IMG/VR virus record: IMGVR_UViG_3300045988_039227
Coordinates: 1-64,000 of that record
Length of the DNA: 64,000 nt
Source of the DNA: a virus
Reading direction: 5' to 3' (one strand)
In this document: in pieces, positions 4,463 to 51,955 of the stretch
Position numbering within the stretch: the stretch's first letter is position 1
How the letters are laid out: each line of letters opens with the position of its first letter
Notes under the pieces: model-generated
Told to the model about the DNA's origin: nothing
Databases searched by the model: none
Seen by the model: only the letters and a program-made list of their open reading frames with translations
Program-made: the position numbers and the translations under genes

Positions 4463-4825
4463 ATGATTGATATTTTTATCGACGATGATAATAAAGTTAC
4501 AATAAAAACCACAAATGGTCTCGCTGAAACAGAAGTTGCAACAGCAGTAGTACTAGAAGCAATGAGAAATCTCAAAAAACCAGAAGAGGCTATCCCAAAG
4601 GTTCATGTATTATACCTACAAAATTGCGGTGATGCAAAATTACAGTGCGTTAAAGCTGTTAAAGAGAACTTGTTGCTAGGTTTAAAAGAGGCTAAAGATC
4701 TTTGTGATGCAGCATCAGGTAATACAAAACCAGAAATCACAAGATCTCTTGACATAAATTATTTGAATAGACTCAAATGTCGCATTGAAGAGAGTGGCGC
4801 TTCTTGTTTTATTGATAAATTATGA
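4463..4825 (+). CDS. ribosomal protein L7/L12 C-terminal-domain homolog, 120 aa
   Basis: [28 protein letters not shown]...RIEESGA aligns by eye with the E. coli RplL C-terminal domain [27 protein letters not shown]...LEEAGAEVEVK. The L12 N-terminal dimerisation/L10-binding region is not recognisable. Confidence 0.7.
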   Translation: [120 protein letters not shown]

Positions 4826-7926: not shown

Positions 7927-8421
7927 ATGGCAAAAGCAGAAACAAAAGGCGCTGCTAAAGAGCAGCAGAATGCGTCAGTAGACAACGTGGTAGAGAAGTT
8001 GGTTAAGGGTAATCTCGTAACCGACATCGCAGACAAGGCGGCAGAAGAGATCCGCCAGGACGAAGAGAAACGTAAGATTTCTCAAGTCAAGGAGATCGTT
8101 AAGTGTGCTGACTACTTGAGAATCAAGGAACTTCTCAATGTCCGTAAGGACCGTGCGAAGGCAAAGATCACTCTTGATATTCTGAAGAAGCGTACAGATT
8201 TGCTGGCTCGTCTTCTGGGCAAGGACGAGAATGGTACCGTCGTTCCTGACGACCAGAAGATTACACCAAATCAGTTCCGCGATCTTTCGCAGAAGATCGA
8301 TGAGGATCAGCGTAAGCAGATGAACGAATTGAACCAGGAATACGAGAAGCACGACCGTGAGTTGCGCAGTAAGTATCCTAACAATTGGTATTATGCCAAC
8401 TATCAATTCGATCGCTTCTAA
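7927..8421 (+). CDS. charged coiled-coil-like protein, 164 aa
   Basis: ORF track. Has the strong leader CAAACATTTTAAACATTATCAAA-ATG. Confidence 0.7.
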   Translation: MAKAETKGAAKEQQNASVDNVVEKLVKGNLVTDIADKAAEEIRQDEEKRKISQVKEIVKCADYLRIKELLNVRKDRAKAKITLDILKKRTDLLARLLGKDENGTVVPDDQKITPNQFRDLSQKIDEDQRKQMNELNQEYEKHDRELRSKYPNNWYYANYQFDRF

Positions 8422-8432
8422 TTCTTCTTCTA

Positions 8433-8457
8433 GTACAAGTATCTTCGTATCACGTAC
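8433..8457 (+). repeat. conserved-loop hairpin, copy 1 (loop AAGTATCTTCGTATCAC)
   Basis: The loop is closed by GTAC/GTAC. Confidence 0.6.
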
Positions 8458-8527
8458 ATGGATTCTGAGGTACTGTAGAGGGTCTTAAGAAGACGGGTCA
8501 GTGAAGGAATCTCAGAATGAATTAACA

Positions 8528-8560
8528 TTCTCATCAAGTATCTTCGTATCACGATGAGAA
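8528..8560 (+). repeat. conserved-loop hairpin, copy 2
   Basis: The same 17-nt loop is closed by a perfect 8-bp stem, TTCTCATC/GATGAGAA. Confidence 0.7.
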
Positions 8561-8701
8561 GAAGAGATGTGAACCCACACAGTAAATTGGGACAGTAGAT
8601 CAAACAATATGTTTTGTGCGTATCATTGTATCGGGGAGATTTAATTGCTCTGAGAAAGTTAATTGAACCCTGCAAAATATATCAAAAATGCTGAATATAG
8701 C

Positions 8702-8727
8702 CCTCTAAGTATCTTCGTATCATGAGG
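8702..8727 (+). repeat. conserved-loop hairpin, copy 3
   Basis: Loop AAGTATCTTCGTATCA is closed by CCTC/GAGG. Confidence 0.55.
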
Positions 8728-9222
8728 ATTCCTATATATTTTTAGCCATGTTTTAAGCGCTCTGAGGCAGAGTATGTCACCAAGTGGAGTAATTAACCAC
8801 GAGTGTCGCAAAAATGTCTTAGAGCGCACCTGAAACGGCTTAAACCGAATGTTCTGACTGATCATCGGAACATTTACAAGAATGTACAGTGTGTATGAAA
8901 TAATCTGTTTGGACAGGGGTTCGACTCCCCTCACGTCCACGGTTCCTCCTCTACGCTATTGTGTAGACTCCCTTTGGGCAACCTAGGTATGTTGTAAAAC
9001 TACCTACACGGGCGTGTTTGGTTTTGACAGACAGAGGAGATAAATACATTAAGCACTATACTATAAATTAAACGACAATGTAAATAACATTGTAGACTAT
9101 ACTAACGTAGCGTAAGTTTAGTCTAGGTGTTTCCTACCAAAGTGGAGAGAAGAAAGAAGTTGGTACCGTCGCCTTTTTGGTTTGGGTCTGGGGTTCGATT
9201 CCCCAGCTTCTTCCTATTAGTT

Positions 9223-9744
9223 ATGACAAAGGGATATAAAGCGATGATAAAGGACAGGTGTCCTTATGTCGTCAACCTCGCATTTAAATGGTGTACAGAG
9301 TTTGGTAGATTATCTAATATAGGTAAGGAGCCACATGAAAGAATTAAGTATGCTGTAAAAACGCGATGGATAGACCGTGTATACCAAGAAAACGTAGCAA
9401 TCTATAACACTGGAAGAGGAATACCTCGAACAGATGAAAAGAATGCATCGTTAAGAAAAGCACTTGGAATACATGAGGGGTCTCAAAATTTTAATTTTGC
9501 AGACTCTATAAACCTAGATTGTATCAACAAAACATTTAACTCTGGAGAACGAGCATTTTGGATATGGGTTAATAGCTGGGTAGTATGGTTTCAAGAGAAC
9601 TATAAGTACCTAGAAAACTATTATAACATATCATGTAAATGTGGTAATATGGTTTTATTTGATAATGCATTGTCAGAGAAAGCTAGTTTTCTAGATGAAT
9701 ATTTTGAAGATTTTTCTAGATTTATTAAGAAAACATTTAATTAA
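9223..9744 (+). CDS. hypothetical protein, 173 aa
   Basis: The ORF track entry 9127..9744 starts at a GTG inside the T-loop hairpin. The first ATG (9223, MTKGYKAMIK) is the more plausible start. Confidence 0.6.
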   Translation: MTKGYKAMIKDRCPYVVNLAFKWCTEFGRLSNIGKEPHERIKYAVKTRWIDRVYQENVAIYNTGRGIPRTDEKNASLRKALGIHEGSQNFNFADSINLDCINKTFNSGERAFWIWVNSWVVWFQENYKYLENYYNISCKCGNMVLFDNALSEKASFLDEYFEDFSRFIKKTFN

Positions 9745-9755
9745 ACAAAATAAAA

Positions 9756-10172
9756 ATGGAGTATTTCCCTAAAATGCTAATTTACAGAGCTAGTCTGTTA
9801 GGCTATAAGACTGAAAGTGTAGAAGATGTACTTAACTGGTTCCATAACAACCTTAAAAAAGGATTTGTCTATGATCCACACATATTCTGCGCTGGAGATA
9901 GCCTAGATGAAGATTGTTTGTACGAATACTGTTGTAATGAACATTTACGTAGAGTTGGTGATTGGATTATGAAAACGATGATCCTAAGCAGTCCTATGAA
10001 GTTCAAGACACTTACAACTCGTATGCGTATAGGTTCAGGACTACTTGAAAAAGTAGAAATGAAGACAGGAGGAAAAGATCTTAAGATCATCCTCTTTAAC
10101 AATTTTCTCAACAACGTTTGGTCATTGTATCGTCAAAAGATGATATATGATCTCCCGTTTTATCAGGAGTAG
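9756..10172 (+). CDS. hypothetical protein, 138 aa
   Basis: ORF track. TAG stop at 10170-10172. Confidence 0.6.
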   Translation: MEYFPKMLIYRASLLGYKTESVEDVLNWFHNNLKKGFVYDPHIFCAGDSLDEDCLYEYCCNEHLRRVGDWIMKTMILSSPMKFKTLTTRMRIGSGLLEKVEMKTGGKDLKIILFNNFLNNVWSLYRQKMIYDLPFYQE

Positions 10173-10201
10173 GGTGAGAGAGATCTCCCCTACCCCACAA
10201 T

Positions 10202-10759
10202 ATGGAGTATCAGCGTATCACTCAATCTGAGATTGAGACCATAAAAGAAGCTCAAAAGGGAAATGAGCTTGCGTTTAATAAATTGTTTAACCGTTACAAA
10301 GAGTTTATTGACAACGTACTCTTTTGTTACGTGAATGACATGGATGAAGCTAAGGATCTTACAAATGTTGTATTTCTTAAGGTTCACCAAAAACTCTCGA
10401 CATTCACAGATTATTCGTCTTTTGGCGGATGGCTGAGAATTATAGCTAATCGAACAGCTATAGATTATCTACGAAAAGTAAAGGAAAAATCAATGGAATT
10501 AGGAGAAGATTCAGGCCGACTACCTGTTGAATTAACTAATTCTTCAGAAGAAGAGGATCTTGTCAATCTTCTTGAGTACGAATCTCTTCTAAAGGAGTTT
10601 GAAAAGCTCCCAAAGAAGACACAGAAGATTTTTAATTTATTCTACGTAGAAGATCTTACAGTTGATGAAATTAGCAAAGTGCTAAAAATTCCTACAGGCA
10701 CTATAAAAGCTGCGTTAAGTCGCACTCGTAGGAAAATTAGAAATAACTTAAAAGTTTAA
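10202..10759 (+). CDS. ECF-type RNA polymerase sigma factor (sigma-70 regions 2 and 4), 185 aa
   Basis: Region 2-like: DEAKDLTNVVFLKVHQKLSTF...FGGWLRIIANRTAIDYLRK. Region 4 HTH-like: LPKKTQKIFNLFYVEDLTVDEISKVLKIPTGTIKAALSRTRRKIR. Confidence 0.85.
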   Translation: MEYQRITQSEIETIKEAQKGNELAFNKLFNRYKEFIDNVLFCYVNDMDEAKDLTNVVFLKVHQKLSTFTDYSSFGGWLRIIANRTAIDYLRKVKEKSMELGEDSGRLPVELTNSSEEEDLVNLLEYESLLKEFEKLPKKTQKIFNLFYVEDLTVDEISKVLKIPTGTIKAALSRTRRKIRNNLKV

Positions 10760-10764
10760 CAAAA

Positions 10765-11157
10765 ATGACTTCACTTTTATTATTGATTCTCTCGATTTTT
10801 GTAGCTCTTGGTTTCGCAAGATACAATAAGAGCAACAAGTTGTTCTGGATCATTCTCGTAAGTCTCTTGCTTGGTTTTACTGGTAAGAGTATGGTCAACT
10901 ATGCCTTTGTTGACCATAAAAGTGAAGCTAGTACAGTTAAAGCTACAGCTCCCATGCTGGCACCGACGTGCTCATTTCAGGCTTTGGAACCCTCAGAGGG
11001 CGCCGGTACATGTGCCGAGACAAAACCAGCAGGTAAGGACACAATTGTAGTTGACACTGTTACTATGCTTAACTTGGGTGAAGACGAGCATATTAATGTG
11101 CTCACTAAACCTCCACGAGATTGGTTAAAAACGAACTTCATATTCGACACAAGTTGA
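10765..11157 (+). CDS. two-TM membrane protein directly downstream of the sigma factor (anti-sigma role is speculative), 130 aa
   Basis: 5-nt gap after the sigma gene. N-terminal TM segments LLLLILSIFVALGFA and FWIILVSLLLGF. No anti-sigma motif was recognised. Confidence 0.55.
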   Translation: MTSLLLLILSIFVALGFARYNKSNKLFWIILVSLLLGFTGKSMVNYAFVDHKSEASTVKATAPMLAPTCSFQALEPSEGAGTCAETKPAGKDTIVVDTVTMLNLGEDEHINVLTKPPRDWLKTNFIFDTS

Positions 11158-11226
11158 ATTTAAGTTAGTTGCCCAGAAAAAAGTATTAATTAATTTTAGT
11201 AAATAACATTTAAAAACATTATCAAA

Positions 11227-12738
11227 ATGGCTAACAAAAAGAATAAGGGCAATGTAAGAGTTGCTCAGAATAATAACAATGGTGATAACGGTGCAAATGC
11301 AGCTGTTGATGCTGCAGCTATGCTCACAACAACAGGTGGATCAAGTATGGATCGTAATCACCAGGTAGACTTGTTGAGGATGGCTCATGATCGCTTCTTC
11401 TTGGATGAGAAGGCTGCTGAGCATACTGGTTTCCCACAGGGAACTATCGACAAGCTCAATCATATTAATGCCCTCGGTATCGCTGTATGCGTATGTAATG
11501 AGGTCAAGTATGGTACTAGTGACTTTGCGGTTGTAATCCGTAAGGCTGCTCTTCCAGAGCTTACTGAAGCCTTGAATGAGATCGGTGTAAAATTCGATGA
11601 CACAAAGCTTTTGCCTTCGAAAGACGATCCGAATGCAGTTGAGGTAACAGGTTCAGCTGTAGAGGTGTCAGAAGAGACTTCTAAGAAGCTCGAAGATGAC
11701 GCTAAGGCTCGCGCAGCTACAGCAGGTAAAGTTTTTGATCCTACAAAGATCAAGGACGAAAAAGAGCTTAAGGAGGCTTTGTCTGGTTTCTTGGCTATGA
11801 ATCGTGATTCTAAGCTGATGGATAGCATCATGCAGTGTGTAAACTTCTATAAGGCATATCGCTCTATTGTGGCTAAGCGCGCTATCGAGTCTGCCGAGAA
11901 GACACTTAAGGACACCAAGGACAAGGAGTATAAGGCTAACGCTGAGAAGGCTCTTGCTTCCGCAAAGAATGACCTTGAGCGCATCAAAGACATGAGTTTC
12001 CATGACACATTTCGCAAGATTGTTGAGCTTACGGGTCGTGTCGGAACACTTACTTATGGAATTGGTGCTCACTTCTTCAACGTTACCGCTACGTCAGGAT
12101 CTCCTGTATCTGCGTTCTGTGAGCTTCATGACCATTCTACTGACAAGAACACCGGCGTATGCAAGTATACCGATGATCAGATTGCAGACGCTGTAAAGTG
12201 CCTTGTAATCATTGGTGCAGACGAAGTTCGCTCAAAGGGAAAAGCTTTGCTTGAAGCAGAGAATAAGCTGCCAGAAAAGGATCGTGTTAAGGAGCATATC
12301 GATGCTGCTAACAAGAACATCGCATTCGCAGACAAGGCTACTGCAGCGGTTCTTGCAGCTCCAGGCGAGTTTGTCGAGAACTTGAAGAAGAACTTCTTGG
12401 AGGGTAACAACTTTGCAAAGAAGACTGTTATCGCCATTAAGCGTGCATACTATCGTGACGTTACTCCAGAGATGATGGCTAAAGTTAAGTCTGATTCAAT
12501 GCTTGATAACGCTACCCAGTATGCTGGTATCATCTCTAATATGTTCCGTAATCCTTCTGATCCGCTCGTAGGTTATGCCAAGGAAAATATCATCGACTTG
12601 GAATTCAAGTCCGATGAGGAGATCAAGGCTGAGGAAGAGGCTGTTGCCAAGGCTGCTAAGGAAGCAGCTGATAAGAAGGCAGCTGAGGATAAGAAGAAGG
12701 CAGCTAAGGGTAAAGCCAAGGCTCAGGTAAAAAAATAA
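11227..12738 (+). CDS. hypothetical protein with Lys/Ala/Glu-rich C-terminal tail, 503 aa
   Basis: ORF track. Has the strongest copy of the leader, TAACATTTAAAAACATTATCAAA-ATG. The tail is EEAVAKAAKEAADKKAAEDKKKAAKGKAKAQVKK. Confidence 0.8.
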   Translation: MANKKNKGNVRVAQNNNNGDNGANAAVDAAAMLTTTGGSSMDRNHQVDLLRMAHDRFFLDEKAAEHTGFPQGTIDKLNHINALGIAVCVCNEVKYGTSDFAVVIRKAALPELTEALNEIGVKFDDTKLLPSKDDPNAVEVTGSAVEVSEETSKKLEDDAKARAATAGKVFDPTKIKDEKELKEALSGFLAMNRDSKLMDSIMQCVNFYKAYRSIVAKRAIESAEKTLKDTKDKEYKANAEKALASAKNDLERIKDMSFHDTFRKIVELTGRVGTLTYGIGAHFFNVTATSGSPVSAFCELHDHSTDKNTGVCKYTDDQIADAVKCLVIIGADEVRSKGKALLEAENKLPEKDRVKEHIDAANKNIAFADKATAAVLAAPGEFVENLKKNFLEGNNFAKKTVIAIKRAYYRDVTPEMMAKVKSDSMLDNATQYAGIISNMFRNPSDPLVGYAKENIIDLEFKSDEEIKAEEEAVAKAAKEAADKKAAEDKKKAAKGKAKAQVKK

Positions 12739-12839
12739 TACGGCCAATTAAGAAAGCTAGTTCACAACTAGTTGGTCGTGTTAAGAAAGCCTTCGATATC
12801 CAGTGGCAAAGTGAACGCAAATAATTTAACTATCAAAGT

Positions 12840-13241
12840 ATGAAAAAATTAGTAATTACGTTGCTAGGAGCAGCATTTCTTACTATTGGCATGAATATTG
12901 CCGATCTTAAGAATGTTCCCCTTCCAACGACAGTGCAAACAGTAGCAGCATCTACTGTACAGCAACCAATGGATCATTTATTTGGTCAAGTGAATCGTGC
13001 TAATCCTGATACAGTGCATGATACCGTTAGGGTAGAAAAGCCTGTAGCTTGTAACCATAAACAGTCGCCTGTAAAGACGATTGTTAAACGCACCATAATT
13101 AAGAAGACAGATACGTCGTATGTACCACTTCTGTATATTATGGAACCTGGAGAAAAGGTCGACTCCACTAATCACAACTCTACCATTCGTAAGGGAGAGC
13201 TCCGTGATTATATTCAAATCGCCTCTAATGTATGCAAGTAA
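12840..13241 (+). CDS. secreted or signal-peptide protein, 133 aa
   Basis: N-terminus is MKKLVITLLGAAFLTIGMNIA. Confidence 0.6.
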   Translation: MKKLVITLLGAAFLTIGMNIADLKNVPLPTTVQTVAASTVQQPMDHLFGQVNRANPDTVHDTVRVEKPVACNHKQSPVKTIVKRTIIKKTDTSYVPLLYIMEPGEKVDSTNHNSTIRKGELRDYIQIASNVCK

Positions 13242-15367
13242 ACATAAGAACCCTGTATACCATAATTAGGTAAGTACATATAGTAGATCCCATTAGTCTA
13301 CGTACGAATATTAACTGGATCCGAGAATATGTTAACCCTGTCTTGCAGGGCGAGATCACTCAAAAGGTAGGATGAAATGTATCAAACATTGAAACAGTTT
13401 GATATAGGTAGGAGAAGCGTTGTATCAGCTCCTATAATTGCACAGCTGGACTTGTGAGAACCGTCTGGAGACAAGCTGGATGAGGCTGAATACACCTTAA
13501 AAAGATGTAGTGTAATTAAAAACGCATAAGTCCCAAGAAGGGCGTAATGAACCGTATCGTAATTATATGTGATAATACTAAGCATATACAAACGTTACAC
13601 GAGACGAACTATGTTGGTCCCCAGTAGGTGAACAGAATTGCATACATGGTATGGTGCATGGTGCTGGAAGAACCGAGGATACCCCAAACAACATAGAAGT
13701 ATTATTAGCCGTAGGTAGTGTTTCTAGTGTCCAAAGCTAGTATAAAGGCCGAAAAACTGCATCAATACTGTGGGAGTAATACCACACAGAGTAAACTAAA
13801 TGAGTTTGCTGACTATACCAAAACCTTACTGTTCGATTCAGTACAACTCCGTTGAAGGGGTGCCAGGGATGGGGTAGAAGTGTCTGATTGCGACCGCCAG
13901 GCTTTTCTTGTTTATGCGGTATATAAAAGTGAAACAAGCACAAGGGTTGGGCAGTCCCTTAATCGAAGCTCTACGGGAGTATCGTACGCGGGTGAAGATC
14001 GCGGTGAAAATCTATTCCAGTTATAATTAGGATGTTAGGCCATCCGAACTTATAGCCAATTTCCATGAAAATTAAATCGTTCATGAGATTATGATCGATG
14101 ACTCCGTTACAGTCAAAGAAAGTTGATGGAGAGCTATCCTAGAATAAGAAATAGCAAAAGCAGGTAGAAAGTTGATTCGAGATATATCCAGCCAGGATCG
14201 TTTGACCTCCACTTTCATCCAAAACGATTTAGACTAATAGTTTATTTGCACTATGATATACAATATTACATAGTCTCTACAGAGTAGTAAGCTGGTATAT
14301 TATGTATGCGTATGTTGTATGCAAGAGATATAAGCTATGAAAATCTAGAAAGTTTAAAAGATAACATGTTTAACAAAAATTGATGTCCCTTCATAGAGTG
14401 GATCTTACGTTGTAAGTAAGGGCTTGAGGTGAAGAAATCGAGTGCCAACCGATATGCCAACCATGCTAAAGTGTACTGCGCAACAGTATATGTAAACATA
14501 AAGGTTCGAAGCAATACAGGAAATTAATGGGCAGCTTATATTCTATGTTGTAAAACGACTGTGTATATTATATGTGTATACTGTCTCTATACATGTATAT
14601 TACGTTTATAAGTGGGTGACAAGATGAAATGTATGGGTTGAATTCCCAATATTCGTGCACTATAAATAGGAGGTAGTAATACCGGTACAGAAAAATTGCA
14701 AATATCAGCAAAGATACAAAAAGCCGTAAAGTCTGTGATGGGTTTGATCCTGAGACGTTCCGATAACCAACCGCTGGGTACATGCCATAAGCCGAGTACC
14801 GCAGTAAGGAGACCTAGCTGACAGTCGCTTCTAAGTTAGCAGTAGAGATCATCTGCTTTAATGACAATCGTGTAGGAATATCTTGTAAGTATAGTAAGGG
14901 AAATACGACCGAGATTCTACATATTTTCGTGGGTTATAAAGATTCTATGATTCTATGAGTGTTAGTTGCTCTGCAAAATTTCACCAACGAAGATTAGAAT
15001 AGTTAAGTTAGATAAAAACGTGAACAAAATAGCAGAAAACAGTTCAGCATTTGATTATGCAAAGAAAGCATTCAAAGCTTTAGACGATGGGCCTGGATAA
15101 TCCAGTAAATGTTAATTGCATCTTATGTATGTAATTCCTGTCACAAGCCTATTACCCTATTGTTGTAATAGGAAGAGTGTGACTAAGTCTATTAAAAGCG
15201 TCTACAATAGTAGAACTTTCTTTAGAAACTAAGTAAGCAAAAGCAGTAACCAAGTATCTTCGTATCAGCGTTGCTTTATTCAATAAACAACGGCAAAGGT
15301 GTAGCCAAAATACACCATATTTTTAAAATCATATCGTTAGTTAATCAATAACGATATCAAAAAGGAT
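13242..15367 (+). ncRNA. 2.1-kb ORF-free region, candidate large structured ncRNA(s) and/or replication/regulatory region
   Basis: There is no + strand ORF of 60 aa or more, and the three short - strand ORFs look spurious. Sampled local GC reaches about 45-53 percent. Hairpins include CCCTG-TCTTG-CAGGG (13335-13349) and GGTGAA repeats at 13990-14010. A perfect T arm TACTG-TTCGATT-CAGTA lies at 13826-13842. A conserved-loop hairpin lies at 15245-15275. Confidence 0.4.
15245..15275 (+). repeat. conserved-loop hairpin, copy 4
   Basis: Loop AAGTATCTTCGTATCA is closed by AGTAACC/GCGTTGCT: 7 bp with one G.T pair and one bulge. It lies about 100 nt upstream of ATG 15368. Confidence 0.55.
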
Positions 15368-19265: not shown

Positions 19266-21176
19266 ATGATAGTAAAGGAAAGACCAGTAGTTCTATATGA
19301 CATAGAAGTTTTTCCAAACTGTTTTCATTGTACTTGTAAAGATTCAGAGAGTCATAAACTATATAAATTCGAGATATCCTGTCGTAAAAATCAACTAGAA
19401 GAACTAGTTGACTTCTTCTACACCAACAGAACTGATCATATAATGTGCGGCTACAACAATAAGCATTATGATGACATAATCATAAGTTACATTATACATT
19501 TCTGCAGTAGAATGAAGCGACTAGGATACTCGAGAATTTGTAGTTCTCTCTATTATCTTAGTAAAGAAATAATAAGTTCGGAAAAAACAGGAAATATTGA
19601 TAAAATTAAAGTGTATAAGTATTCAAACTACTTCTACTCATTTGATCTTATGTTGATGCTCTATAGTGCCAAACAGCAGAAAAGCTTAAAAGAAATAGAA
19701 ATACTCTTACATATGCCAAATGTACAAGAGTATGAAGGAAGTTTTGATCTGCAGATCCAGGAATGTGATATTGACGCTATGATAGAGTATAACGTGAACG
19801 ACGTAGAAGCTACTGAAACTTTGCTTAACAAAGTAAAAGAAGATGTAGAACTACGTCTTGAAGTTGAAAAAGAATGGGGGTTTGATGCACTGTCGATGAG
19901 TGGTGTGCGATTTGGAGAAGAAGTGCTCTTGCGCAAAACTCTAGATATTGCCAAAACTACAAAAGATGAATTGAAAACACGTACTCGAAAAGTCGGGAAC
20001 ATTCGTCTAGGTGACATTATACTCCCATTTATACAATATTCTAATCCAAAGTTGAAAGAAGTCTTATTGGATGTAAAGAATGCTACTTGCAATGCAAGTA
20101 AGTCTGATAAGAAACAAGAAAACTATGAGAAGAAGTTTGTTCTCTCAAACATTTGCTACTCTATAGGTGAAGGTGGTATACACACCATCAATGAACCTAG
20201 AGTCTACAAACCTACAGATGAACAGTTTATAGGACACTCCGACGTTACGTCTATGTATCCTTCGTTAGCCATTATAAACCATTGGCTTCCGGTTCACTTA
20301 GGAGAAGATTTTTGGAATGTGTACAGTGCTCTATACGAGGAGCGCTTGGCTGCCAAACGTAATGGAGAGTTATTAAAGTCTAAGGCATTTAAACAGGCTC
20401 TTAATGCTCTTACAGGAAAGATGCAACAAGAAAGTAGCTGGGCTTATGATCCACTTAACGTGTATAAGATACGTATAAATGGGCAACTTATACTACTTAT
20501 GTTAGTGGATAGGCTTCTAGAATTGAATTGTAAGATTGTACAAGTCAATACAGATGGTGTCGTCTACATTGCAGATAAATCCAGCCGTAGCTCCATAATG
20601 GACGCTATTAAGGAAGTTGAGCAATTAACCCAGTTGACATTCGAGTCCGATGATTACGAGTCGTTTTATCAGTACGACGTGAACAATTACTTTGGTGTTC
20701 GCAAAGGATATTCCCAATCTGGAGATCCGAGACTGATAGAAAAGAAAGGCAGGTTTATCACAGAAATTGGTCTTAACAACAGCATGACACCGGTTGTTAT
20801 TTCCAAAGCTGTGATAAACTATTTTTTGAACAATGAACCGATAGACAAGTTTATTAAGAAGGATAGAGATATCCGTGATTTCTTAATGTCACAAAGCGTA
20901 AATAAGGAATCAAAAGTTGAATATGGCGGAAAACAGATTCAACGTATTAATAGATACTACGCGTCAAGCAGTGGATACTATCTTATAAGAATTAAGGACA
21001 AAATGTACGAAAGTCGTTCTGAAACAAAAATAACAGAATATGGAGTACGAATTCTTAATAAGATAGATGCCACACCAATAGATAAACGTCACCTGGATTA
21101 CCAGTACTACATTAGCAAAGCAAAAAAGATAGCTAGTGAGTTTGTTAACCGCCAGTTGACAATATTCGATGATTAA
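19266..21176 (+). CDS. polB: family B DNA polymerase (compact, 636 aa)
   Basis: Exo I-like YDIEVFPN; Exo-like YNVNDVEAT; motif A DVTSMYPSLAI (DxxSLYPS); motif B KQALNALTGK; motif C QVNTDGVVY. Confidence 0.88.
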   Translation: MIVKERPVVLYDIEVFPNCFHCTCKDSESHKLYKFEISCRKNQLEELVDFFYTNRTDHIMCGYNNKHYDDIIISYIIHFCSRMKRLGYSRICSSLYYLSKEIISSEKTGNIDKIKVYKYSNYFYSFDLMLMLYSAKQQKSLKEIEILLHMPNVQEYEGSFDLQIQECDIDAMIEYNVNDVEATETLLNKVKEDVELRLEVEKEWGFDALSMSGVRFGEEVLLRKTLDIAKTTKDELKTRTRKVGNIRLGDIILPFIQYSNPKLKEVLLDVKNATCNASKSDKKQENYEKKFVLSNICYSIGEGGIHTINEPRVYKPTDEQFIGHSDVTSMYPSLAIINHWLPVHLGEDFWNVYSALYEERLAAKRNGELLKSKAFKQALNALTGKMQQESSWAYDPLNVYKIRINGQLILLMLVDRLLELNCKIVQVNTDGVVYIADKSSRSSIMDAIKEVEQLTQLTFESDDYESFYQYDVNNYFGVRKGYSQSGDPRLIEKKGRFITEIGLNNSMTPVVISKAVINYFLNNEPIDKFIKKDRDIRDFLMSQSVNKESKVEYGGKQIQRINRYYASSSGYYLIRIKDKMYESRSETKITEYGVRILNKIDATPIDKRHLDYQYYISKAKKIASEFVNRQLTIFDD

Positions 21177-21197: not shown

Positions 21198-21764
21198 ATG
21201 ATTATTGAACTAAACACAAAACTCCTGGATATTCCAGGACTAAATTCAAATCAATTAATATTCCTAAGTTTGGTATTGGATAAGAATCAAAAAACTTATA
21301 ATCAAGACGTCCGCAAAATTGTCAGCCTAGTTAGCGACGAAGAAATATCAAACTTAATTTCTCAGGGACTTATTACCTCGATCGAGAGAGGTAAGTCAAT
21401 TACATATCATGCAACAGACACGCTCAATAATATAGTTCGCCCAAAAAAGGACTATTTCGATCTGTTCTATGAAATGTACCCAATATACGTTCTACGACCA
21501 GATGGTACCAAAAACTATCTGAGAGCCAACGTTAACAAATGTAGACATTTATTTAATGTTTATGTAGGTCAAAGCGAAGCTATGGCTCAACATCTTATTC
21601 AGTGTCTTGACTTCGAAATGAAGAAAAAGACTAACGAAGGTAAACTAAGTTATATGAAGACGATGTGGAGATGGCTCGTAGACCATCAATGGGAAGAATC
21701 TGAGGAAGAAATGCAAGACAACTCTAAAATTGAGGAATCGACTTATGGAACAGAACTTATCTAA
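21198..21764 (+). CDS. hypothetical protein (a replication-initiation or helicase-loader role is possible from position only), 188 aa
   Basis: ORF track. Sits between polB and the helicase. Confidence 0.6.
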   Translation: MIIELNTKLLDIPGLNSNQLIFLSLVLDKNQKTYNQDVRKIVSLVSDEEISNLISQGLITSIERGKSITYHATDTLNNIVRPKKDYFDLFYEMYPIYVLRPDGTKNYLRANVNKCRHLFNVYVGQSEAMAQHLIQCLDFEMKKKTNEGKLSYMKTMWRWLVDHQWEESEEEMQDNSKIEESTYGTELI

Positions 21765-22671
21765 TCTTATACGACCAATGTCAGTTGTAGCCCAAGAGGC
21801 TATAAACTATATATCTGGTCGAAGAGAACACTCTATAACTTCTCTTAAGACTAGATGGGCTAAGTTTAATAAGCAGTGTATGGGAGGTATTGAACCTAAT
21901 ACCGTTTATACCATAGCTGGTATTTCAGGAAGTGGAAAGAGCTCATTCGCTAATGAGATCTCAACTGATATTATTGATTTGAATCCTGGTGAAGAAATAG
22001 TGATTCTGATTTTCTCATTAGAGATGGTTGGATTTAGGCAAGTTGGAAGAACGCTTTCTAGTAAGCTTAGGAAAACGACTTCGACTTTGTATAGTTCGGA
22101 AACGGACCTGGATGACGATACCTTCAGAAAAGTCATCTCAGTATCCAATCAACTAAAGGAGTATCCTATATGGTTTGTAGATAATCCTACAACTCCCAAG
22201 GAAGCAGAAGACATTATTAAGTATTTCTATAATACATATATAAAGGGTACCGATAAGCATTTTGTGATAATGTATGACCATGCTCTATTAACGAAGCCTA
22301 TAGGCAGCGTTATAGAAACCATGCAGGAACTCGAAAGAGTTTTCATAAGTGCTAAAAAGTATCCTATGACATCAGTGTTACAACTAGCACAGATGAATAG
22401 AAATATTGAATCACCAGAAAGAATAAATAATCCTTTGTCGCATTATCCTATGAGAAGCGACATTTCATCTGCTGATGCTTTATTTCAAGCTAGCGATTAT
22501 GTTATAGTTATTCATAGGCCTGAAATTCTTGGAATACAAGAATACGGCCCGAGCCATTTACCTACTCAGAATAAGGTGTATTTACACATCTTAAAGAATC
22601 GAGACGCGGGAAAGCCCTGCATACTTGAATTCCAGAATGACTTAGCATATAACAACTTGATAGAAAGTTAA
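21745..22671 (+). CDS. dnaB: DnaB-like replicative helicase (RecA-fold C-terminal domain)
   Basis: Walker A GISGSGKSSF; Walker B-like FVIMYDHALL; LQLAQMNR. The ORF track start 21730 is a TTG, so the first ATG at 21745 was chosen. Confidence 0.75.
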   Translation: MEQNLSNLIRPMSVVAQEAINYISGRREHSITSLKTRWAKFNKQCMGGIEPNTVYTIAGISGSGKSSFANEISTDIIDLNPGEEIVILIFSLEMVGFRQVGRTLSSKLRKTTSTLYSSETDLDDDTFRKVISVSNQLKEYPIWFVDNPTTPKEAEDIIKYFYNTYIKGTDKHFVIMYDHALLTKPIGSVIETMQELERVFISAKKYPMTSVLQLAQMNRNIESPERINNPLSHYPMRSDISSADALFQASDYVIVIHRPEILGIQEYGPSHLPTQNKVYLHILKNRDAGKPCILEFQNDLAYNNLIES

Positions 22672-23153: not shown

Positions 23154-23178
23154 TTAAAACTTTTAGTATCATTGTATC

Positions 23179-23919
23179 ATGAGTTTAACATTACCTACTA
23201 GTAAAATTCCTGCAGTTTCTGAAAATCCTAGATATCTTATACTCTATGGTCTTCCAAAGGCTGGTAAGACATCCTGTCTTGCACAGCTGGATAATAACCT
23301 TATCATAGACCTTGAGGGAGGCTCTGTCTTCGTTGATGCGATGGCCATCCAGTGTCGTACGATCAATGATTTAGGAGAAGCGGCAAGTGCCATTCGTGCC
23401 AAGAATAAAGAAGTAGGTCATAATTTCTATAAGCATATCACTATCGACAATGCTACACGACTCGAAGATATTTGTATGAGCTATGCTTGTACACTTTATC
23501 GCCAAACTCCAATGGGTAAGAAATGGGACGGCACAGACGTAACGACTCTTCCTAATGGTGCTGGCTATAAGTATCTTAGAGATGCAGTAAAGAAGGTAGT
23601 TGATATGTTCCGAGATTTGTGTGACGAATTTATTCTTGTAGGTCACGTTAAAGACACTGTAACTGAAAAGGACGGTGTTGAAGTTTCTGCAAAAGAACTA
23701 GACTTGGTTGGCAAACTGAGTAAAATCGTGTGTGGATTAGCCGATGCGGTTGGTTATGTATATCGCAAAGGAAATGAAACACATATATCCTTTAAGGGTG
23801 GTACATCTGATACCATTATGGAGGCTCGTGCAAGACACATAGCTGGAAAGGATATCGTTATTGCAGAAGGTAATGAAGATGGGACACTTACAACACATTG
23901 GGATAGAATATTTAAGTAA
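23179..23919 (+). CDS. AAA_24 / Sak4-like RecA-fold ATPase, 246 aa
   Basis: Has the P-loop LILYGLPKAGKTS at the N-terminus. Size and position match phage Sak4-type recombination ATPases. Confidence 0.65.
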   Translation: MSLTLPTSKIPAVSENPRYLILYGLPKAGKTSCLAQLDNNLIIDLEGGSVFVDAMAIQCRTINDLGEAASAIRAKNKEVGHNFYKHITIDNATRLEDICMSYACTLYRQTPMGKKWDGTDVTTLPNGAGYKYLRDAVKKVVDMFRDLCDEFILVGHVKDTVTEKDGVEVSAKELDLVGKLSKIVCGLADAVGYVYRKGNETHISFKGGTSDTIMEARARHIAGKDIVIAEGNEDGTLTTHWDRIFK

Positions 23920-24615: not shown

Positions 24616-25181
24616 GGGGTTTACGCCTGAAGAAATAGAAATACTGCTTGATTGTATGAAATCCGGTAAATGGTTCTTGTACCGTTTACATAGCAGGAGT
24701 GTCAAACTATACAGCAAGTGGATACACCCAGGGGGATAATACCGCCATGAAAGGGTGTTGGTGGAGCTAGGTAATTCAGTTACCCTATGGAGGTGAAATG
24801 CCTCCAATAAGGCTCGCAGGGTGTCGTGAGACACAAGCATGGACGAATGCGAAAACTACTCTAAAATGACGTTTTTAATCAGTGTATTATTTTCATTCTA
24901 AGTTTGTTATATAGACAACAGTCCAGTAGGGTTCGAATCCCTACAGAGCCACAACATTTCTGATGATAAGAAGAGTTACAACTTGCGAAAGTAATAGCTC
25001 TGTCCGCCTGTGAAGGCCGATATTATCTATGATGCACAGCTTACCTGGCATCAGATTTCATACGCGCGTACGCTACGTAAGTGCGGGTTTGAATAACCTA
25101 AAGTCCGAGCTTAGCATCTCCGTAAACTGCTATACGTCCGTCAACGTAGACCCGAGCATGTCATTAAACTGCTCATTTTTA
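24616..25181 (+). ncRNA. ORF-free structured island upstream of the tRNA-like genes (candidate ncRNA)
   Basis: Hairpins include GGAGG-TGAAATG-CCTCC, GTGTC-GTGA-GACAC (GNRA loop), GCAT-GGACGA-ATGC and the T-loop hairpin TAGGG-TTCGAAT-CCCTA (24927-24943). GGCTC (24809-24813) can pair with GAGCC (24946-24950). The palindrome TACGCGCGTA and the hairpin TACGT-CCGTCA-ACGTA are also present. Confidence 0.35.
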
Positions 25182-25285
25182 GGGAAGTTAGTCTAATGGT
25201 AAAACAAGGGCATTGATAGATTGGAATGTGTGCAAGCTTAAAAGAAACACTACCCTGCTTATCGGTTCGAATCCGATACTTTCCA
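25182..25285 (+). tRNA. aberrant tRNA-like gene, 104 nt, with a roughly 35-42 nt insertion in the anticodon region
   Basis: Good acceptor GGGAAGT/ACTTTCC; U8 A9; D arm GTCT-AATGGTA-AAAC; perfect T arm ATCGG-TTCGAAT-CCGAT. I found no 5-bp/7-nt anticodon arm, so isotype and anticodon cannot be assigned. Confidence 0.45.
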
Positions 25286-25300
25286 CTCGTTTTTATATTT

Positions 25301-25381
25301 GGGGTATGTATGTGCGCACTGAGAACGGTGACCTTCTTACGGAAAAGAAGGCAGTACGGGTTCGACTCCCGTATACTCCAC
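25301..25381 (+). tRNA. aberrant tRNA-like gene with Gln-like acceptor start and an expanded anticodon-position loop
   Basis: With T25300, the 5' end reads TGGGGTA as in E. coli tRNA-Gln. Acceptor GGGGTAT/ATACTCC; T arm ACGGG-TTCGACT-CCCGT. The hairpin at the anticodon position is CCTTC-TTACGGAAAA-GAAGG (10-nt loop, or 8 or 6 nt with a longer stem). There is no CTA triplet, and the D arm is non-canonical. Confidence 0.45.
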
Positions 25382-25394
25382 TAACTTATAAGTT

Positions 25395-26366
25395 ATGTAT
25401 AGTACTAGAACAGCAATTACTATGTCCTTGAGAGACATCTTGGACAAGGTAAATGATTTAGACATCTATACGTATTGTTTAGGGCAATTTAAAGTTGGAA
25501 GGCTTATGAATAGTCCTTTAAGGTCTGGAGATAAAAATCCTTCATTTGGAATATTTCATTCCAAAACAGGAGGGTTACTATGGAAAGACCTTGGAACTGG
25601 AGAGTATGGAAATGCTTTAAAGTTCCTAAAAGAATATAAAGGTATAACGACTAGAGAAGAACTTGAACGAGAATTATTGAGAATTGTGCGCAGAATAAAT
25701 CCTAACACAACTGTAAGGACAAATACGTACGATAAACCGAAAGGAGATACCGATATCGGAATAGTTCGACAGCCGTTTACCAATGTAGACAAACAATACT
25801 GGAAACAGTTTGGAATACATATTGATACCTTAAAAAAGTTCAATGTGTTCAGCATTAAATACTTTCTTTGTAATAGTATCGTCAGAAGTATCTACAAAGA
25901 AAATAGTCCTATGTATGCATATAAAGTGTATGATAAGTTTAAGATTTATCGTCCACTTGCTTCCAAGTTTACTAAATGGCGTACCAATCTGACAAATCGG
26001 CACGTACAGGGATTATCCGAATTGCCTAAGGAAGGAGGCGACCTGCTCATAATAACAAAGTCATTAAAAGATGTCATGTGTTGCTACGAGATGGGTTTTA
26101 ATGCAATAGCTGCTGCTAGTGAAACTGTATTTATACCTGAAGACATACTCAAGTCTCTACGATCCAAATGGAAACATATAGTAATACTGTATGATAGAGA
26201 TCAAACCGGTATGCATAAGGCTAGACAATACAGCAAACAATACAAATTAGATGCTTTTTTCATTAATAAGAAATTTAAAGCCAAAGATCTATCAGATGCT
26301 GTTCGTGACAACGGATTTAGCACCATGAAAGACTGGTTAATAAAAACGTTACAGAAATATGATTGA
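25395..26366 (+). CDS. DNA primase (TOPRIM domain), about 315-323 aa
   Basis: TOPRIM-like LLIITKSLKDVMCCYEMGFNAIAAASE...HIVILYDRDQTGMHKA (E...DxD pattern). An alternative start is ATG 25422 (MSLRDILDK). Confidence 0.72.
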   Translation: MYSTRTAITMSLRDILDKVNDLDIYTYCLGQFKVGRLMNSPLRSGDKNPSFGIFHSKTGGLLWKDLGTGEYGNALKFLKEYKGITTREELERELLRIVRRINPNTTVRTNTYDKPKGDTDIGIVRQPFTNVDKQYWKQFGIHIDTLKKFNVFSIKYFLCNSIVRSIYKENSPMYAYKVYDKFKIYRPLASKFTKWRTNLTNRHVQGLSELPKEGGDLLIITKSLKDVMCCYEMGFNAIAAASETVFIPEDILKSLRSKWKHIVILYDRDQTGMHKARQYSKQYKLDAFFINKKFKAKDLSDAVRDNGFSTMKDWLIKTLQKYD

Positions 26367-35500: not shown

Positions 35501-36463
35501 AACAAGTCTATCTTTAAATTTATTTAATTTGTCATCAATTTCGTAATATCTTTTTTCATGAATATTGCTCCAACTATGACCATATGCATCAATTATTTTC
35601 GGGTTTTTGATATTTAAATAGTCAACTTTTATATTATCATAAAGATTATTTTCAAATCTGTTTTTATATTTTTCCGGATTAGCGTTATTATGTATATCAC
35701 TAAAATTGTAAAACGACCCTATTATATCTTCATATACAGAAGTAATTAATTTAAAAGGAACATTTGGATCCTAATACTCAACAAATAGTCCATCTAATTT
35801 TAACAAACAATCTTCTGCGTCTTTTATGTTACCATAATTTATCGCTTCTATAATTTTTTTCTTAAGAATATTATTAAACCAATCAAAATTACGTTTATCT
35901 TTAAAATCAGATTCTTCAACATTGTTCAAAATGCTAATAACAGTCCTTTTGGAATCTGTGTACCACTATGAATATTTTTTTAATGTGGCGTCATTAAACG
36001 ACGATAATATATAACTAGTCACATCGTTATAAGTCGATGACATAGTAATGCTATCTGTATGATATATAGCAGTTTTAAAACCTTCTATATTTGTGTCAAA
36101 CTTCTTAAAATTAGGACTATATTTACTGTTTACTGTATGATATGTAACCTACGGCTCTCCATTCTTATCTACAACTTTAGATACATTTTCTTTATCTTCA
36201 GAAGTCCAATCCCCAAACCATTTAAAGAATTCGTCAGAATATACTTTTGCCTTAAGTATAAGGGCTTGTGTTCTGTCGCCGTTTGCAATATGCAATAGCT
36301 CTCCAAATAATATAGAGTCGGCGCCATTTGGCGCCTTATCTATACTATATCCATTATTTTTGCTCCAGAGTAAATACGCAGTATCCTCATCGAACAAATC
36401 TTTTAATTCACCAAATTCTTTGGCTACTTGTTTATTATGTAAATTAGGACATATTTCTTTCAT
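29561..36463 (-). CDS. giant virion-associated protein, 2300 codons, zincin HExxH motif, C-terminal TM and Met/Pro-rich tail (requires TAG as sense)
   Basis: ATG 36463 overlaps the upstream TAA (TAATG). I checked every in-phase triplet by hand: no TAA/TGA occurs until TAA at 29561-29563, and there are about 56 in-frame TAG. Track fragments 36149..36463, 32663..32845, 32102..32419, 31106..31315, 29981..30253 and 29561..29953 are all in this frame. HEMLH lies at 34536-34550. The C-terminus ends MAPMQPMPKMAPMAPMPGF. Confidence 0.75.
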
Positions 36464-51948: not shown

Positions 51949-51955
51949 AATTTAA

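Follow-up and report, generated by a model that had tools for sequence, protein, structure and literature searches.

A two-pentamer hairpin family in gut crAss-like phages of the Suoliviridae, a candidate RNA operator for translation control

Introduction

In the CsrA/RsmE systems of gamma-proteobacteria, a non-coding RNA (CsrB/RsmZ) carries one short word on several hairpins with variable stems, and the same word overlaps the translation initiation regions of target mRNAs; the protein, a symmetric dimer, binds two words simultaneously. In phage T4, early and replication genes are controlled at the AUG by RNA-binding proteins, namely RegA, which acts on many early mRNAs, and the DNA polymerase gp43, whose operator, a hairpin over the ribosome-binding region of its own mRNA, is not the same in T4 and RB69. 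The boxB hairpins (nut) recognized by N of phage λ and the put sites of HK022 are small, present in few copies in early transcripts, and possess a phage-specific recognition sequence. The N4 virion RNA polymerase uses hairpin promoters arranged in tandem, in which stems of 5-7 bp vary around a conserved loop region, the loop being 3 nt long; they form on the template strand entirely upstream of +1.

The hairpin family described here, from a crAss-like phage, has features of all of these. Like the CsrA/RsmE targets it places one word on variable stems both in an apparently non-coding array and over translation starts, and a dimeric factor is predicted. Unlike the A(N)GGA of CsrA, its word is GWRYC, twice within one hairpin; the system is phage-borne, the word switches by lineage, the array lies beside a tmRNA, and no CsrA homolog was found. 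To our knowledge, Bacteroidetes generally lack CsrA. As in T4 the affected genes are early or replication genes, but searches found no homolog of RegA (PF01818), a sigma factor is among the targets, and a defined tandem pentamer is common to several genes and non-coding RNAs. Unlike nut and put, the sites abut start codons, number 6-7 copies including a four-site array, are associated with no boxA that we could find, and possess a far larger, pseudo-symmetric loop. As with N4, the host of the elements is a phage that packages its RNA polymerase; the loops here, however, are 16-20 nt long, sense-strand folding is favoured, and coding starts are overlapped. The family is without match in Rfam or in the literature.

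Results and Discussion

Inventory of sites

The window, a stretch of 64,000 nucleotides from IMG/VR record IMGVR_UViG_3300045988_039227, belongs to a Burzaovirus (Suoliviridae). Four hairpins with an identical loop sequence and differing stems had been noted in the initial annotation; these are real, with coordinates and arms as described, and the shared 16-mer, AAGTATCTTCGTATCA, is found at 8437, 8536, 8707, and 15252, always on the + strand. A motif search of both strands revealed two further members (10207-10219 and 23166-23178), so the family is larger than reported; together with the site at 8620 it has seven members (Table 1). The sequence GTATC-N3-GTATC occurs seven times on the + strand and not at all on the - strand, against approximately 0.16 occurrences expected from the pentamer frequency, and is absent from the other 39 kb (late half) of the closest complete genome. 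When up to two mismatches are allowed there are eight matches, where 1.9 are expected, a number reached in none of 100 shuffles. Because no two copies share their flanks, the motif does not belong to a longer dispersed repeat, a possibility raised earlier.

Table 1. Members of the hairpin family and adjacent features in the window
Feature	Position	Strand	Description
Array site 1	8429..8462	+	Hairpin TCTA-GTAC / GTAC-A-TGGA (GTAC/GTAC stem extended, with one bulge); core GTATC-TTC-GTATC at 8439-8451
Small hairpin	8515..8530	+	GAATG-AAUUAA-CATTC; adjoins site 2, with a 3-nt overlap with its 5′ arm
Array site 2	8528..8560	+	Hairpin TTCTCATC / GATGAGAA; core GTATC-TTC-GTATC at 8538-8550
Array site 3	8620..8632	+	Core GTATC-ATT-GTATC; no enclosing stem in the window phage
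Array site 4	8702..8727	+	Hairpin CCTC / GAGG; core GTATC-TTC-GTATC at 8709-8721
Permuted (two-piece) tmRNA gene	8880..9115	+	Rfam RF04321, 64.2 bits, E 4.5e-10
Sigma-start site	10207..10219	+	Core GTATC-AGC-GTATC; codons 2-6 of ORF 10202-10759
Downstream hairpin (copy 4)	15245..15275	+	AGTAACC / G(C)GTTGCT; core GTATC-TTC-GTATC at 15254-15266
Terminator-like hairpin	15298..15326	+	GGTGTA/TACACC + ATATTTTTAA; between the 15245 copy and gene 15368
Sak4-like start site	23157..23186	+	Hairpin AAACTT / GAGTTT; core GTATC-ATT-GTATC at 23166-23178

Structure and covariation

The hairpins are best described as a variable outer stem of 4-8 bp around a pseudo-symmetric core, A-GWRYC-(N2-3)-GWRYC-A, in which the R-Y dinucleotides of the two pentamers are predicted to pair with each other (2 bp). 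This inner helix is unstable by itself. The loop had been called invariant, which is true of the two pentamers, but the 3-nt spacer varies and positions 3-4 covary as two base pairs. These positions are Watson-Crick complementary (R3-Y4′ and Y4-R3′) in 155 of 190 sites, compared to 58 of 190 (maximum 76) when pentamers are recombined at random, and 15 of 58 in the reverse-strand background. Consistent with this pairing are the hetero types observed, GAACC/GAGTC (20) and GAGTC/GAACC (19), while neither GAACC/GAACC nor GAGTC/GAGTC occurs.

A flank helix of at least four Watson-Crick pairs is found in 85 of 125 distinct instances; shuffling the partner flanks gives a mean of 27 and a maximum of 38, and where the 16-mer occurs by chance in unrelated viral contigs, 2 of 16 instances have such a helix. 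Across 33 unselected orthologs the core stem of site 1 is 97% paired, with two-sided change in three of its four pairs (versions GTAC/GTAC, GGGC/GCCC, GGAC/GTCC, AGAC/GTCT, and GTGC/GCAT), and the stem of site 2 is 100% paired with two compensatory pairs, which gives five pairs that change on both sides. The one-sided changes of site 2 involve five pairs and are all G.U (33 G.U cells, no A.C); ortholog substitutions in bona fide helices comprise seven compensatory changes and approximately 10 of the G.U type versus one or two A.C. Nearly every one-sided stem change thus gives G.U on the + strand, consistent with a folded sense-strand RNA, though it is only the ortholog-based counts that favour this strand, the unconstrained count of G.U versus A.C matching the compositional background. 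The comparison of folding energies between the two strands was not decisive.

A selected structure with covarying stems and a repeated loop word, as originally proposed, is therefore supported and extends to other Suoliviridae subfamilies. Two members of the window, at 8620 and 10207, have no enclosing stem; copies of this kind had been named as evidence against the proposal, and tell weakly against it.

The four-site array

The core of site 1 begins 18 nt past the stop codon of ORF 7927-8421, successive sites are approximately 85-100 nt apart and bound structured segments, and site 4 is found some 160 nt upstream of the permuted tmRNA, for which the ARAGORN call spans 8850-9206. The copy at 8620, earlier considered degenerate, is instead the third site of an array present in every related lineage examined; of the 15 loci compared, 14 have this conserved site, +199 to +228 past the upstream stop codon, and in the window lineage its pentamers are invariant and its spacer variable. 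The loop of the small hairpin, AAUUAA, is kept in most lineages examined (variants AACTAA and AAATAA), and its stem, read directly from the sequences, covaries between lineages (GATG/CATC, GGTG/CACC, AGCG/CGCT). With this covarying hairpin alongside and the permuted tmRNA after it, the whole array region is RNA-like. The tmRNA is directly downstream of the array in the window, the same order holds in most lineages, and the two probably constitute one transcription unit.

Distant Suoliviridae, including Loutivirinae and Boorivirinae, possess the same layout: the array of four sites comes after one conserved gene and, as a rule, ahead of a permuted tmRNA. Measured from the stop codon of this gene family, the sites are at approximately +18-37, +117-145, +199-228, and +279-316; all four are present in 12 of the 15 loci. 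Several lineages have one more site at the end of a conserved non-coding region of approximately 2.1 kb. The word itself is characteristic of the lineage (GAGCC, GAACC/GAGTC, GAATC, or GTGCC; general form G-W-R-Y-C) and, where it changes from one lineage to another, does so at every site of the genome; the architecture is conserved although the word is swapped. The array of the relative L116, for instance, contains GTACaa[GAGCCTTGAGCC]acGTAC, with flanks identical to those of the first window copy.

This arrangement would also suit a sequence-specific endoribonuclease, like T4 RegB or a Cas6-like enzyme, which would release units from an array-tmRNA precursor and from the 2.1 kb RNA, and inactivate or mature the mRNAs discussed below (sigma, Sak4-like, and DNA polymerase) at their translation starts. 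Such an enzyme would account for the same anatomy and positions as an RNA operator: the array sites delimit structured segments, site 1 lies 18-37 nt past a stop codon, and the 15245 copy lies at the 3′ end of the non-coding region. A two-piece tmRNA requires processing, and relatives have self-cleaving ribozymes as well as introns in these early regions, which indicates that RNA processing is frequent there. However, a nuclease domain was found in none of the neighbouring ORFs and no conserved cleavage-type feature was recognized, and we consider this explanation unlikely; binding and cutting cannot be told apart by the tools used here.

Sites at translation starts

Since the two additional members are located at gene starts, not every copy resides in ORF-free DNA, contrary to what had been stated. 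The first is situated within the gene for a phage ECF-type sigma factor. In relatives this gene has GAATC-N3-GAATC at +5 to +25, made up of different codons (for Arg, AGA instead of the CGT of the window), and in the relatives L104, L105, and L108 an enclosing stem lies beside or over the start codon; the site is missing from many lineages. The core of the second ends at -1 of the ATG of a Sak4-like AAA_24 ATPase gene (23179-23919). A lineage-matched core occupies this exact position in four lineages, the window and three others, where it reads GAACC-AAA-GAGTC, GAGCC-ATT-GAGCC, and GATAC-TA-GATAC, the last of which falls outside the GWRYC form; in the L167/L168 lineage the flanks of the site are unchanged. 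The DNA polymerase gene likewise has a core ending at -1 of its ATG in four lineages, in the lineage's own word; the window lacks this site. In the hairpin of the window's Sak4-like gene the 3′ arm consists of the G of the AUG and codons 2-3. RNAfold places its A and U in an internal loop with the G paired, and in the relative L124 places the AUG in the 3′ arm.

A core that ends at -1 of an ATG could alternatively yield leaderless mRNAs, in the style of a T7 promoter, and the elements might act as DNA, either as promoters (hairpin or sequence) of the crAss virion RNA polymerase or as double-stranded operators or iterons for a repressor or replication initiator. The N4 promoters P1-P3 are tandem sites, and the three to four tandem sites heading a non-coding region resemble them. 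No Bacteroides-type promoter (TAnnTTTG) was seen nearby, and lineage-specific direct repeats are also typical of iterons and cosB R sites. In vitro the virion RNA polymerase of phi14:2 requires single-stranded DNA for activity, and early promoters have no known motif (bioRxiv 10.1101/2020.03.07.982082). Against these points, the sigma site at +5 to +25 is inside the ORF, and transcription initiated there would leave out the start codon; 3′ arms are found beyond the position where a transcript would begin, and at the Sak4-like and DNA polymerase genes they form the first codons. Where a stem has changed on one side only, the G.U pairs are those of the sense and not the template strand, loops of 16-20 nt on 4-bp stems should not extrude from duplex DNA, and a terminator-like hairpin follows the 15245 copy within approximately 30 nt. 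For double-stranded DNA binding, moreover, covarying stems and R-Y/R-Y covariation would be purposeless. We regard a DNA function as improbable, and the N4-type hairpin promoter suggested in the initial annotation is unsupported, given its 3-nt loop, the sigma site, and the sense-strand G.U pairs.

The downstream copy and the search for a binding partner

The 15245 copy is located at the 3′ end of the 2.1 kb non-coding region, and its stem has two imperfections, a single bulge and a single G.U pair; in orthologs an altered 5′ arm (AAGCATCG) still pairs with the same 3′ arm. An equivalent site is present approximately 5 kb downstream of the sigma gene in several lineages, though not all, and is often followed by a T-run, as in L105, L110, and L112. 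The copy is indeed upstream of gene 15368, as had been observed, but a terminator-like hairpin (15298-15316, then ATATTTTT) that starts some 30 nt past it intervenes.

This neighbour brings to mind nut-like or put-like elements of processive antitermination, or a protein-dependent termination system, in which a factor on the nascent hairpin would modify RNA polymerase for read-through of the tmRNA, tRNAs, and terminators, and at the 15245 copy would decide whether the adjacent terminator works. The T-runs of L105, L110, and L112 agree with such a role, the array precedes highly structured RNA genes, and lineage-specific words with presumed lineage-specific factors resemble boxB/N of the lambdoid phages. 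The p164 family, encoded next to the array, is a helical hairpin with a basic helix that carries an arginine-rich LRxRRRE; no significant structural match to it was obtained. Its sequence, basic helix included, does not track the word type. Nor would nut sites be expected at exactly -1 of the ATG in two genes and in the first codons of a sigma gene, and no boxA-like element was recognized, all of which leaves antitermination a doubtful explanation. Pfam and PHROG scans of approximately 40 window ORFs revealed no RegA, CsrA, KH, S1, RRM, or coat-like domain.

Proposed function

We lean towards the explanation that the cores are an RNA operator, recognized by a putative lineage-specific factor that is probably a dimer, and that the array serves as a multi-site decoy or scaffold. 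On the assumption that each site is transcribed in the window phage, the hairpins would form in sense-strand transcripts of the early/middle region, leaving the G, W, and C of each pentamer unpaired and open to recognition. The core would be bound by a sequence-specific trans-acting factor, most simply a two-fold symmetric dimeric RNA-binding protein, which may be phage-encoded or a host factor that differs between hosts. Its specificity would have been switched between lineages mainly through pentamer position 2, where Burzaovirus has U and most relatives have A. The earlier interpretation, a site for a dimeric RNA- or DNA-binding protein, is partly supported: RNA binding is favoured because of the pseudo-two-fold core, the genome-wide word switch, and the overlap with translation starts, and the DNA version is disfavoured.

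Binding at the cores that adjoin or come after the AUGs of the sigma, Sak4-like ATPase, and DNA polymerase genes, where the stem involves the start codon, would control translation initiation; repression, on the pattern of T4 RegA and gp43 or of CsrA, is the likelier outcome. By analogy with CsrB/RsmZ, the array, after the p164-family gene and upstream of the tmRNA, may serve as decoy or scaffold for the factor, and the site at the far (3′) end of the 2.1 kb region may do likewise; or else the factor could control the stability or processing of those non-coding RNAs. Long intergenic regions rank among the early RNAs with the highest transcription in phi14:2, also a crAss-like phage (bioRxiv 10.1101/2020.03.07.982082). 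Taken together, the two-pentamer hairpin family suggests that these gut crAss-like phages possess a translation-control circuit not previously described.

Genome setting

The phage belongs to the genus Burzaovirus (Crassvirales; Suoliviridae; Oafivirinae), and the window is approximately 92% identical to cr124_1 (NC_055899) and cr7_1 (NC_055895). The first ~30 kb carry plus-strand genes in the standard code, among them many small ORFs, together with one tRNA; the rest consists of late genes on the minus strand in which TAG is read as a sense codon. The late ORFs at 30000-64000 (e.g. 36463-51951, minus strand) are open only if TAG is sense, giving products of, for instance, 5162 and 1576 aa, and the early and middle genes keep to the standard code.

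Features of the window referred to in the text
Feature	Position	Strand	Remark
Permuted (two-piece) tmRNA	8880-9115 (ARAGORN 8850-9206)	+	Rfam RF04321, 64 bits
ECF-type sigma factor gene	10202-10759	+	
DNA polymerase gene	19266-21176	+	replication module
DnaB-like helicase gene	21745-22671	+	replication module
Sak4-like ATPase gene	23179-23919	+	replication module
Primase gene	25395-26366	+	replication module

The tmRNA encodes the tag DNVNNIVDYTNVA, in a phage whose late genes recode TAG. Among related loci, L018 and L064 have an insertion of ~0.9 kb within the permuted tmRNA, and L119 and L124 have group I introns beside it. T-arm-like repeats (GGGTTCGAATCCC and similar) are clustered in 24860-25390 (at 24929, 25085, 25263 and 25358), where Rfam calls a single tRNA (25182-25285, 104 nt) and ARAGORN none; these may be intron-containing or otherwise unusual tRNAs, perhaps including a suppressor. 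ORF 4463-4825 (plus strand) is a homolog of the C-terminal domain of ribosomal protein L7/L12 (PF00542, E 3.6e-9, above the curated cut-off). Directly 3′ of the sigma gene, and with conserved synteny, ORF 10765-11157 (plus strand) shows two N-terminal hydrophobic segments which, when the translation is read by eye, resemble membrane helices; its product may be an anti-sigma factor. RAGATH-12 RNA and RAGATH-1 hammerhead ribozymes occur in related phages, within their early regions (L105 3285-3366; L109 2107-2186; L107 2997-3067), none of which is found in the window at the gathering threshold. A recurrent AT-rich leader, TTAACATT...(A)ATCAA(N)ATG, lies ahead of start codons; it is seen at 133, 6592, 8522 and 23137 and in the leaders of many plus-strand genes.

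A family of plus-strand hairpins

The sequence GTATC-N3-GTATC occurs seven times on the plus strand of the window (8439, 8538, 8620, 8709, 10207, 15254 and 23166), where approximately 0.16 occurrences are expected, and is found neither on the minus strand nor in the other 39 kb of the closest complete genome. The initial annotation had described four hairpin copies, all of which were recovered at the same positions and with the same arms. As a description of the family this set was incomplete, and the site at 8620, regarded as a degenerate version, is instead the conserved third member of a four-site array. When IMG/VR was scanned for the 16-mer, ~40 related contigs were retrieved along with 21 unrelated matches due to chance, which served as a negative control.

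The possibility that the motif is simply part of a longer dispersed repeat with conserved flanks, raised at the outset, is not borne out, nor is a repeat of the REP or MITE type: the copies have only 13-16 nt in common, and their flanks and stems differ. A CRISPR array was likewise rejected, as no cas genes were found and stems and flanks differ between copies without whole-unit identity. Within the primase ORF, a strong plus-strand hairpin (25863-25902; z -4.3; stem CTTTGTA/TACAAAG) presents the family word at a different spacing, GTATC-N7-GTATC, in its loop.

The pentamer pair

Among Burzaovirus relatives both pentamers are invariant and the 3-nt spacer varies freely (TTC, TTT, TTA, ATC, ATA, AGC, TGC and others). 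More distant relatives, fetched with the sigma factor as anchor (45-85% identical), keep the architecture with other words, namely GAGCC, GAATC and GTGCC, as well as hetero pairs (GAGTC with GAACC, for example); the general form of the core is A-GWRYC-(N2-3)-GWRYC-A. Most of the motif's information lies in the pentamers, and scanning by pattern sufficed. Positions 3 and 4 of the two pentamers (R3-Y4′ and Y4-R3′) are both Watson-Crick complementary in 155 of 190 distinct sites, compared with 58 (maximum 76) when pentamers are randomly recombined and 15 of 58 reverse-strand matches to the pattern. The hetero types GAACC/GAGTC (n=20) and GAGTC/GAACC (n=19) are both common, and GAACC/GAACC and GAGTC/GAGTC are absent from the 190 sites. 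From this complementarity it follows that the core holds a 2-bp R-Y/R-Y helix, with G-W left unpaired 5′ of it and C left unpaired 3′ of it on each strand. We infer that the core is a two-fold pseudo-symmetric object, and as such a natural target for a homodimer. An inner register of four "pairs" (GWRY/GWRY, drawn by RNAfold as GUAU/GUAU) is lineage-specific and leaves the hetero types unexplained, and the R3-Y4′/Y4-R3′ register is preferred.

Outer stems

The core is enclosed by stems of 4-8 bp, the enclosed region being 16-20 nt. Taking all related loci together, four or more Watson-Crick pairs form a helix between the flanks in 85 of 125 distinct instances; shuffling the partner flanks lowers this to 27 on average (maximum 38), and among the chance 16-mer matches only 2 of 16 have such a helix. 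We aligned 33 orthologous array regions selected by homology alone. In these, all 264 cells of hairpin 2 are paired (100%); two of its pairs are compensatory, and five vary on one side only, the variants being G.U throughout, without a single A.C. For the core of hairpin 1 the paired fraction is 97%, with double-sided changes at three of the four pairs (GTAC, GGGC/GCCC, GGAC/GTCC and AGAC/GTCT). The proposal of a selected structure with covarying stems is thus upheld, and we are almost certain that the hairpin element is real, structured and under selection.

Since a G.U pair becomes a C.A mismatch on the complementary strand, it is the plus strand that folds, most simply as sense RNA. For this purpose wobbles were counted in orthologs in place of an unconstrained G.U versus A.C count, which reflects compositional background; comparison of folding energies between the strands was not decisive. 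That the element acts as sense RNA is, in our judgement, very probable.

Sites at translation starts

In the Sak4-like gene the core (23166-23178) ends at -1 of the ATG, and the hairpin AAACTT/GAGTTT pairs the G of AUG and codons 2-3. Three other lineages have their own word in the identical place: GAACC-AAA-GAGTC, with the same flanks as in the window, GAGCC-ATT-GAGCC, and GATAC-TA-GATAC, which falls outside the GWRYC form. The core also ends at -1 of the DNA polymerase ATG in four lineages (GAGTC-TTA-GAACC, GAACC-TTT-GAGTC, GAATC-ATA-GAATC and GTATC-TTA-GTATC), and in the hairpins of both genes the first codons form the 3′ arm. In several lineages the sigma gene carries a tandem pentamer among its first codons (codons 2-9, +5 to +25). 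It is built from different codons, ATG GAG TAT CAG CGT ATC in the window and AGA ATC ACA GAA TC elsewhere, so that the choice of Arg codon (CGT vs AGA) follows the word of the lineage; in L104, L105 and L108 the stem adjoins or covers the sigma start codon. This placement at the AUG, shared by different genes with lineage-matched words in constant flanks, is the strongest clue to function.

Conserved array and the 2.1 kb region

At all 15 loci compared, which are drawn from lineages with a p164-family gene, an array of sites lies 3′ of that gene (here ORF 7927-8421; its product is a helical protein of ~150-190 aa), at offsets of ~+18-37, +117-145, +199-228 and +279-316 from its stop codon; 12 of the 15 have all four. 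A small hairpin with an AAUUAA loop and a covarying stem adjoins site 2. The sequence TTAACATT was considered as a promoter box and rejected, since it belongs to this hairpin and to the AT-rich leaders. The permuted tmRNA lies 3′ of the array, replaced in one lineage by a tRNA. The motif also occurs in Loutivirinae (cr53_1) and Boorivirinae (cr50_1), and has no clear counterpart in the single Uncouvirinae genome inspected.

Several lineages, though not all, have a further site ~5 kb 3′ of sigma. It lies at the downstream end of an ORF-free region of ~2.1 kb whose position is conserved throughout the family. In the window this is copy 4 (15245-15275), followed by a terminator-like hairpin (15298-15316) and then gene 15368; in some relatives a T-run directly follows the site. 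Intrinsic (Rho-independent) termination by the motif was rejected, a scan finding no terminator at the seven sites and a sole nearby match in that hairpin downstream of copy 4.

The region itself (13242-15367) contains no ORF of at least 140 aa in the standard or stop-reassigned codes, the longest being 131 aa; stop-codon recoding as the cause of the ORF-free regions was rejected, there being no long ORF in any code. Every Suoliviridae lineage examined has a gap of 1.9-2.5 kb in the same place. Over its full length the region is 80% nucleotide-identical to that of the related locus L109, whereas the flanking 503-aa protein (p503) is only 32% identical. Conserved blocks (13270-13380, 13892-13934, 14362-14451, 14609-14672 and 15316-15367) are retained in comparisons in which neighbouring proteins are 25-35% identical. 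The region has no Rfam match and may be a giant non-coding RNA or a replication origin.

Promoters and known regulatory systems

A hairpin-type promoter, such as that used by the N4 virion RNA polymerase, was among the roles first suggested. The virion RNA polymerase of phage phi14:2 uses a single-stranded DNA template and has no known promoter (bioRxiv 10.1101/2020.03.07.982082), and the idea therefore keeps a small probability. We disfavour it because the sigma site lies inside the ORF, the 3′ arms at the Sak4-like and DNA polymerase genes are coding sequence, one-sided stem changes are wobbles on the sense strand, and copy 4 precedes a terminator-like hairpin. The loops are also large: N4 promoters have a stem of 5-7 bp and a loop of 3 nt and, unlike the present hairpins, lie on the template strand wholly upstream of the start of early-gene transcription. 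The Bacteroides promoter consensus TAnnTTTG is absent near the sites and from early-region intergenic regions. A reading of the pentamers as ECF sigma -35 and -10 elements was rejected because their spacing is 8 nt and the sigma factor is conserved across word switches.

A parallel is Csr/Rsm, where, as here, hairpins in non-coding RNA share a word with translation starts on mRNAs (sigma, Sak4-like and DNA polymerase); GWRYC, however, is not a GGA-containing word, and Pfam reveals no CsrA among ~40 window ORFs. Like the operators of T4 RegA and gp43, the motif occupies the initiation codon region of early and replication genes of a phage, but no RegA domain was found in those ORFs. By analogy, the motif appears to work as these systems do while belonging to neither, since its word is a different one and the ORF scans yielded no homologous protein.

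Cleavage at the hairpins, in the manner of RegB, is a possible alternative to binding. So is nut-like antitermination. No boxA was recognised; an AAUUAA hairpin precedes site 2, and the p164 family has an LRxRRRE helix that does not track word type.

Search for a partner

A partner was sought by co-variation, comparing Burzaovirus (GTATC) ORF by ORF with L104 and L109, the nearest relatives that carry GAGCC. Identity drops sharply for the p164 and p503 proteins from one word type to the other, but neither protein clusters by word, and no partner emerged. Profile searches with the p164 family retrieve phage hypothetical proteins only, and its AF2 model (pLDDT 80), a helical hairpin, has no structural match in the PDB at E<=0.001. 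Pfam and PHROG scans of ~40 window ORFs reveal no RNA-binding or nuclease domain. Apart from the tmRNA, Rfam 15 has no match in 8380-9260, whether the gathering threshold or an E value of up to 5 is applied, and no match in relatives covers the hairpins, even at permissive thresholds. No description of the motif was found in the searchable literature.

Proposed role

We propose that the hairpin is an RNA operator for a lineage-specific trans-acting factor, probably a dimeric protein, through which the sigma and replication genes would be regulated at translation initiation. Decoy, scaffold, stability or processing functions would fall to the four-site array and to the site ending the 2.1 kb region. 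This operator-plus-decoy mechanism ranges from doubtful to about an even chance, according to how much of it one claims. A Csr/Rsm-like circuit of the Suoliviridae, in which a dimeric factor reads the GWRYC-N-GWRYC hairpin and gates sigma and replication translation, a four-site decoy co-transcribed with the tmRNA titrates it, and specificity is switched between lineages, is a tentative and rather unlikely reading. We rate the motif as a new RNA family of a known general kind, the protein-binding hairpin operators.

The crAss-like phages are the most abundant group of human gut phages. To our knowledge almost nothing is known of their gene regulation, and early promoters, operators and regulatory RNAs have not been defined. 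The Csr/Rsm-like reading, if true, would give that group its first defined cis-regulatory RNA regulon. The motif offers a concrete, testable handle, being short and having exact boundaries: it marks where replication genes start, and likewise the sigma gene, the likely switch to middle and late transcription, and forms a conserved multi-site non-coding array beside the phage tmRNA. Natural word swaps in constant flanks (GTATC vs GAGCC; GAACC/GAGTC pairs) provide ready-made specificity mutants, and the motif could serve both as a key in the annotation of Suoliviridae genomes and as bait for the factor. It may also help to explain the timing of the switch from standard-code early genes to TAG-recoded late genes.
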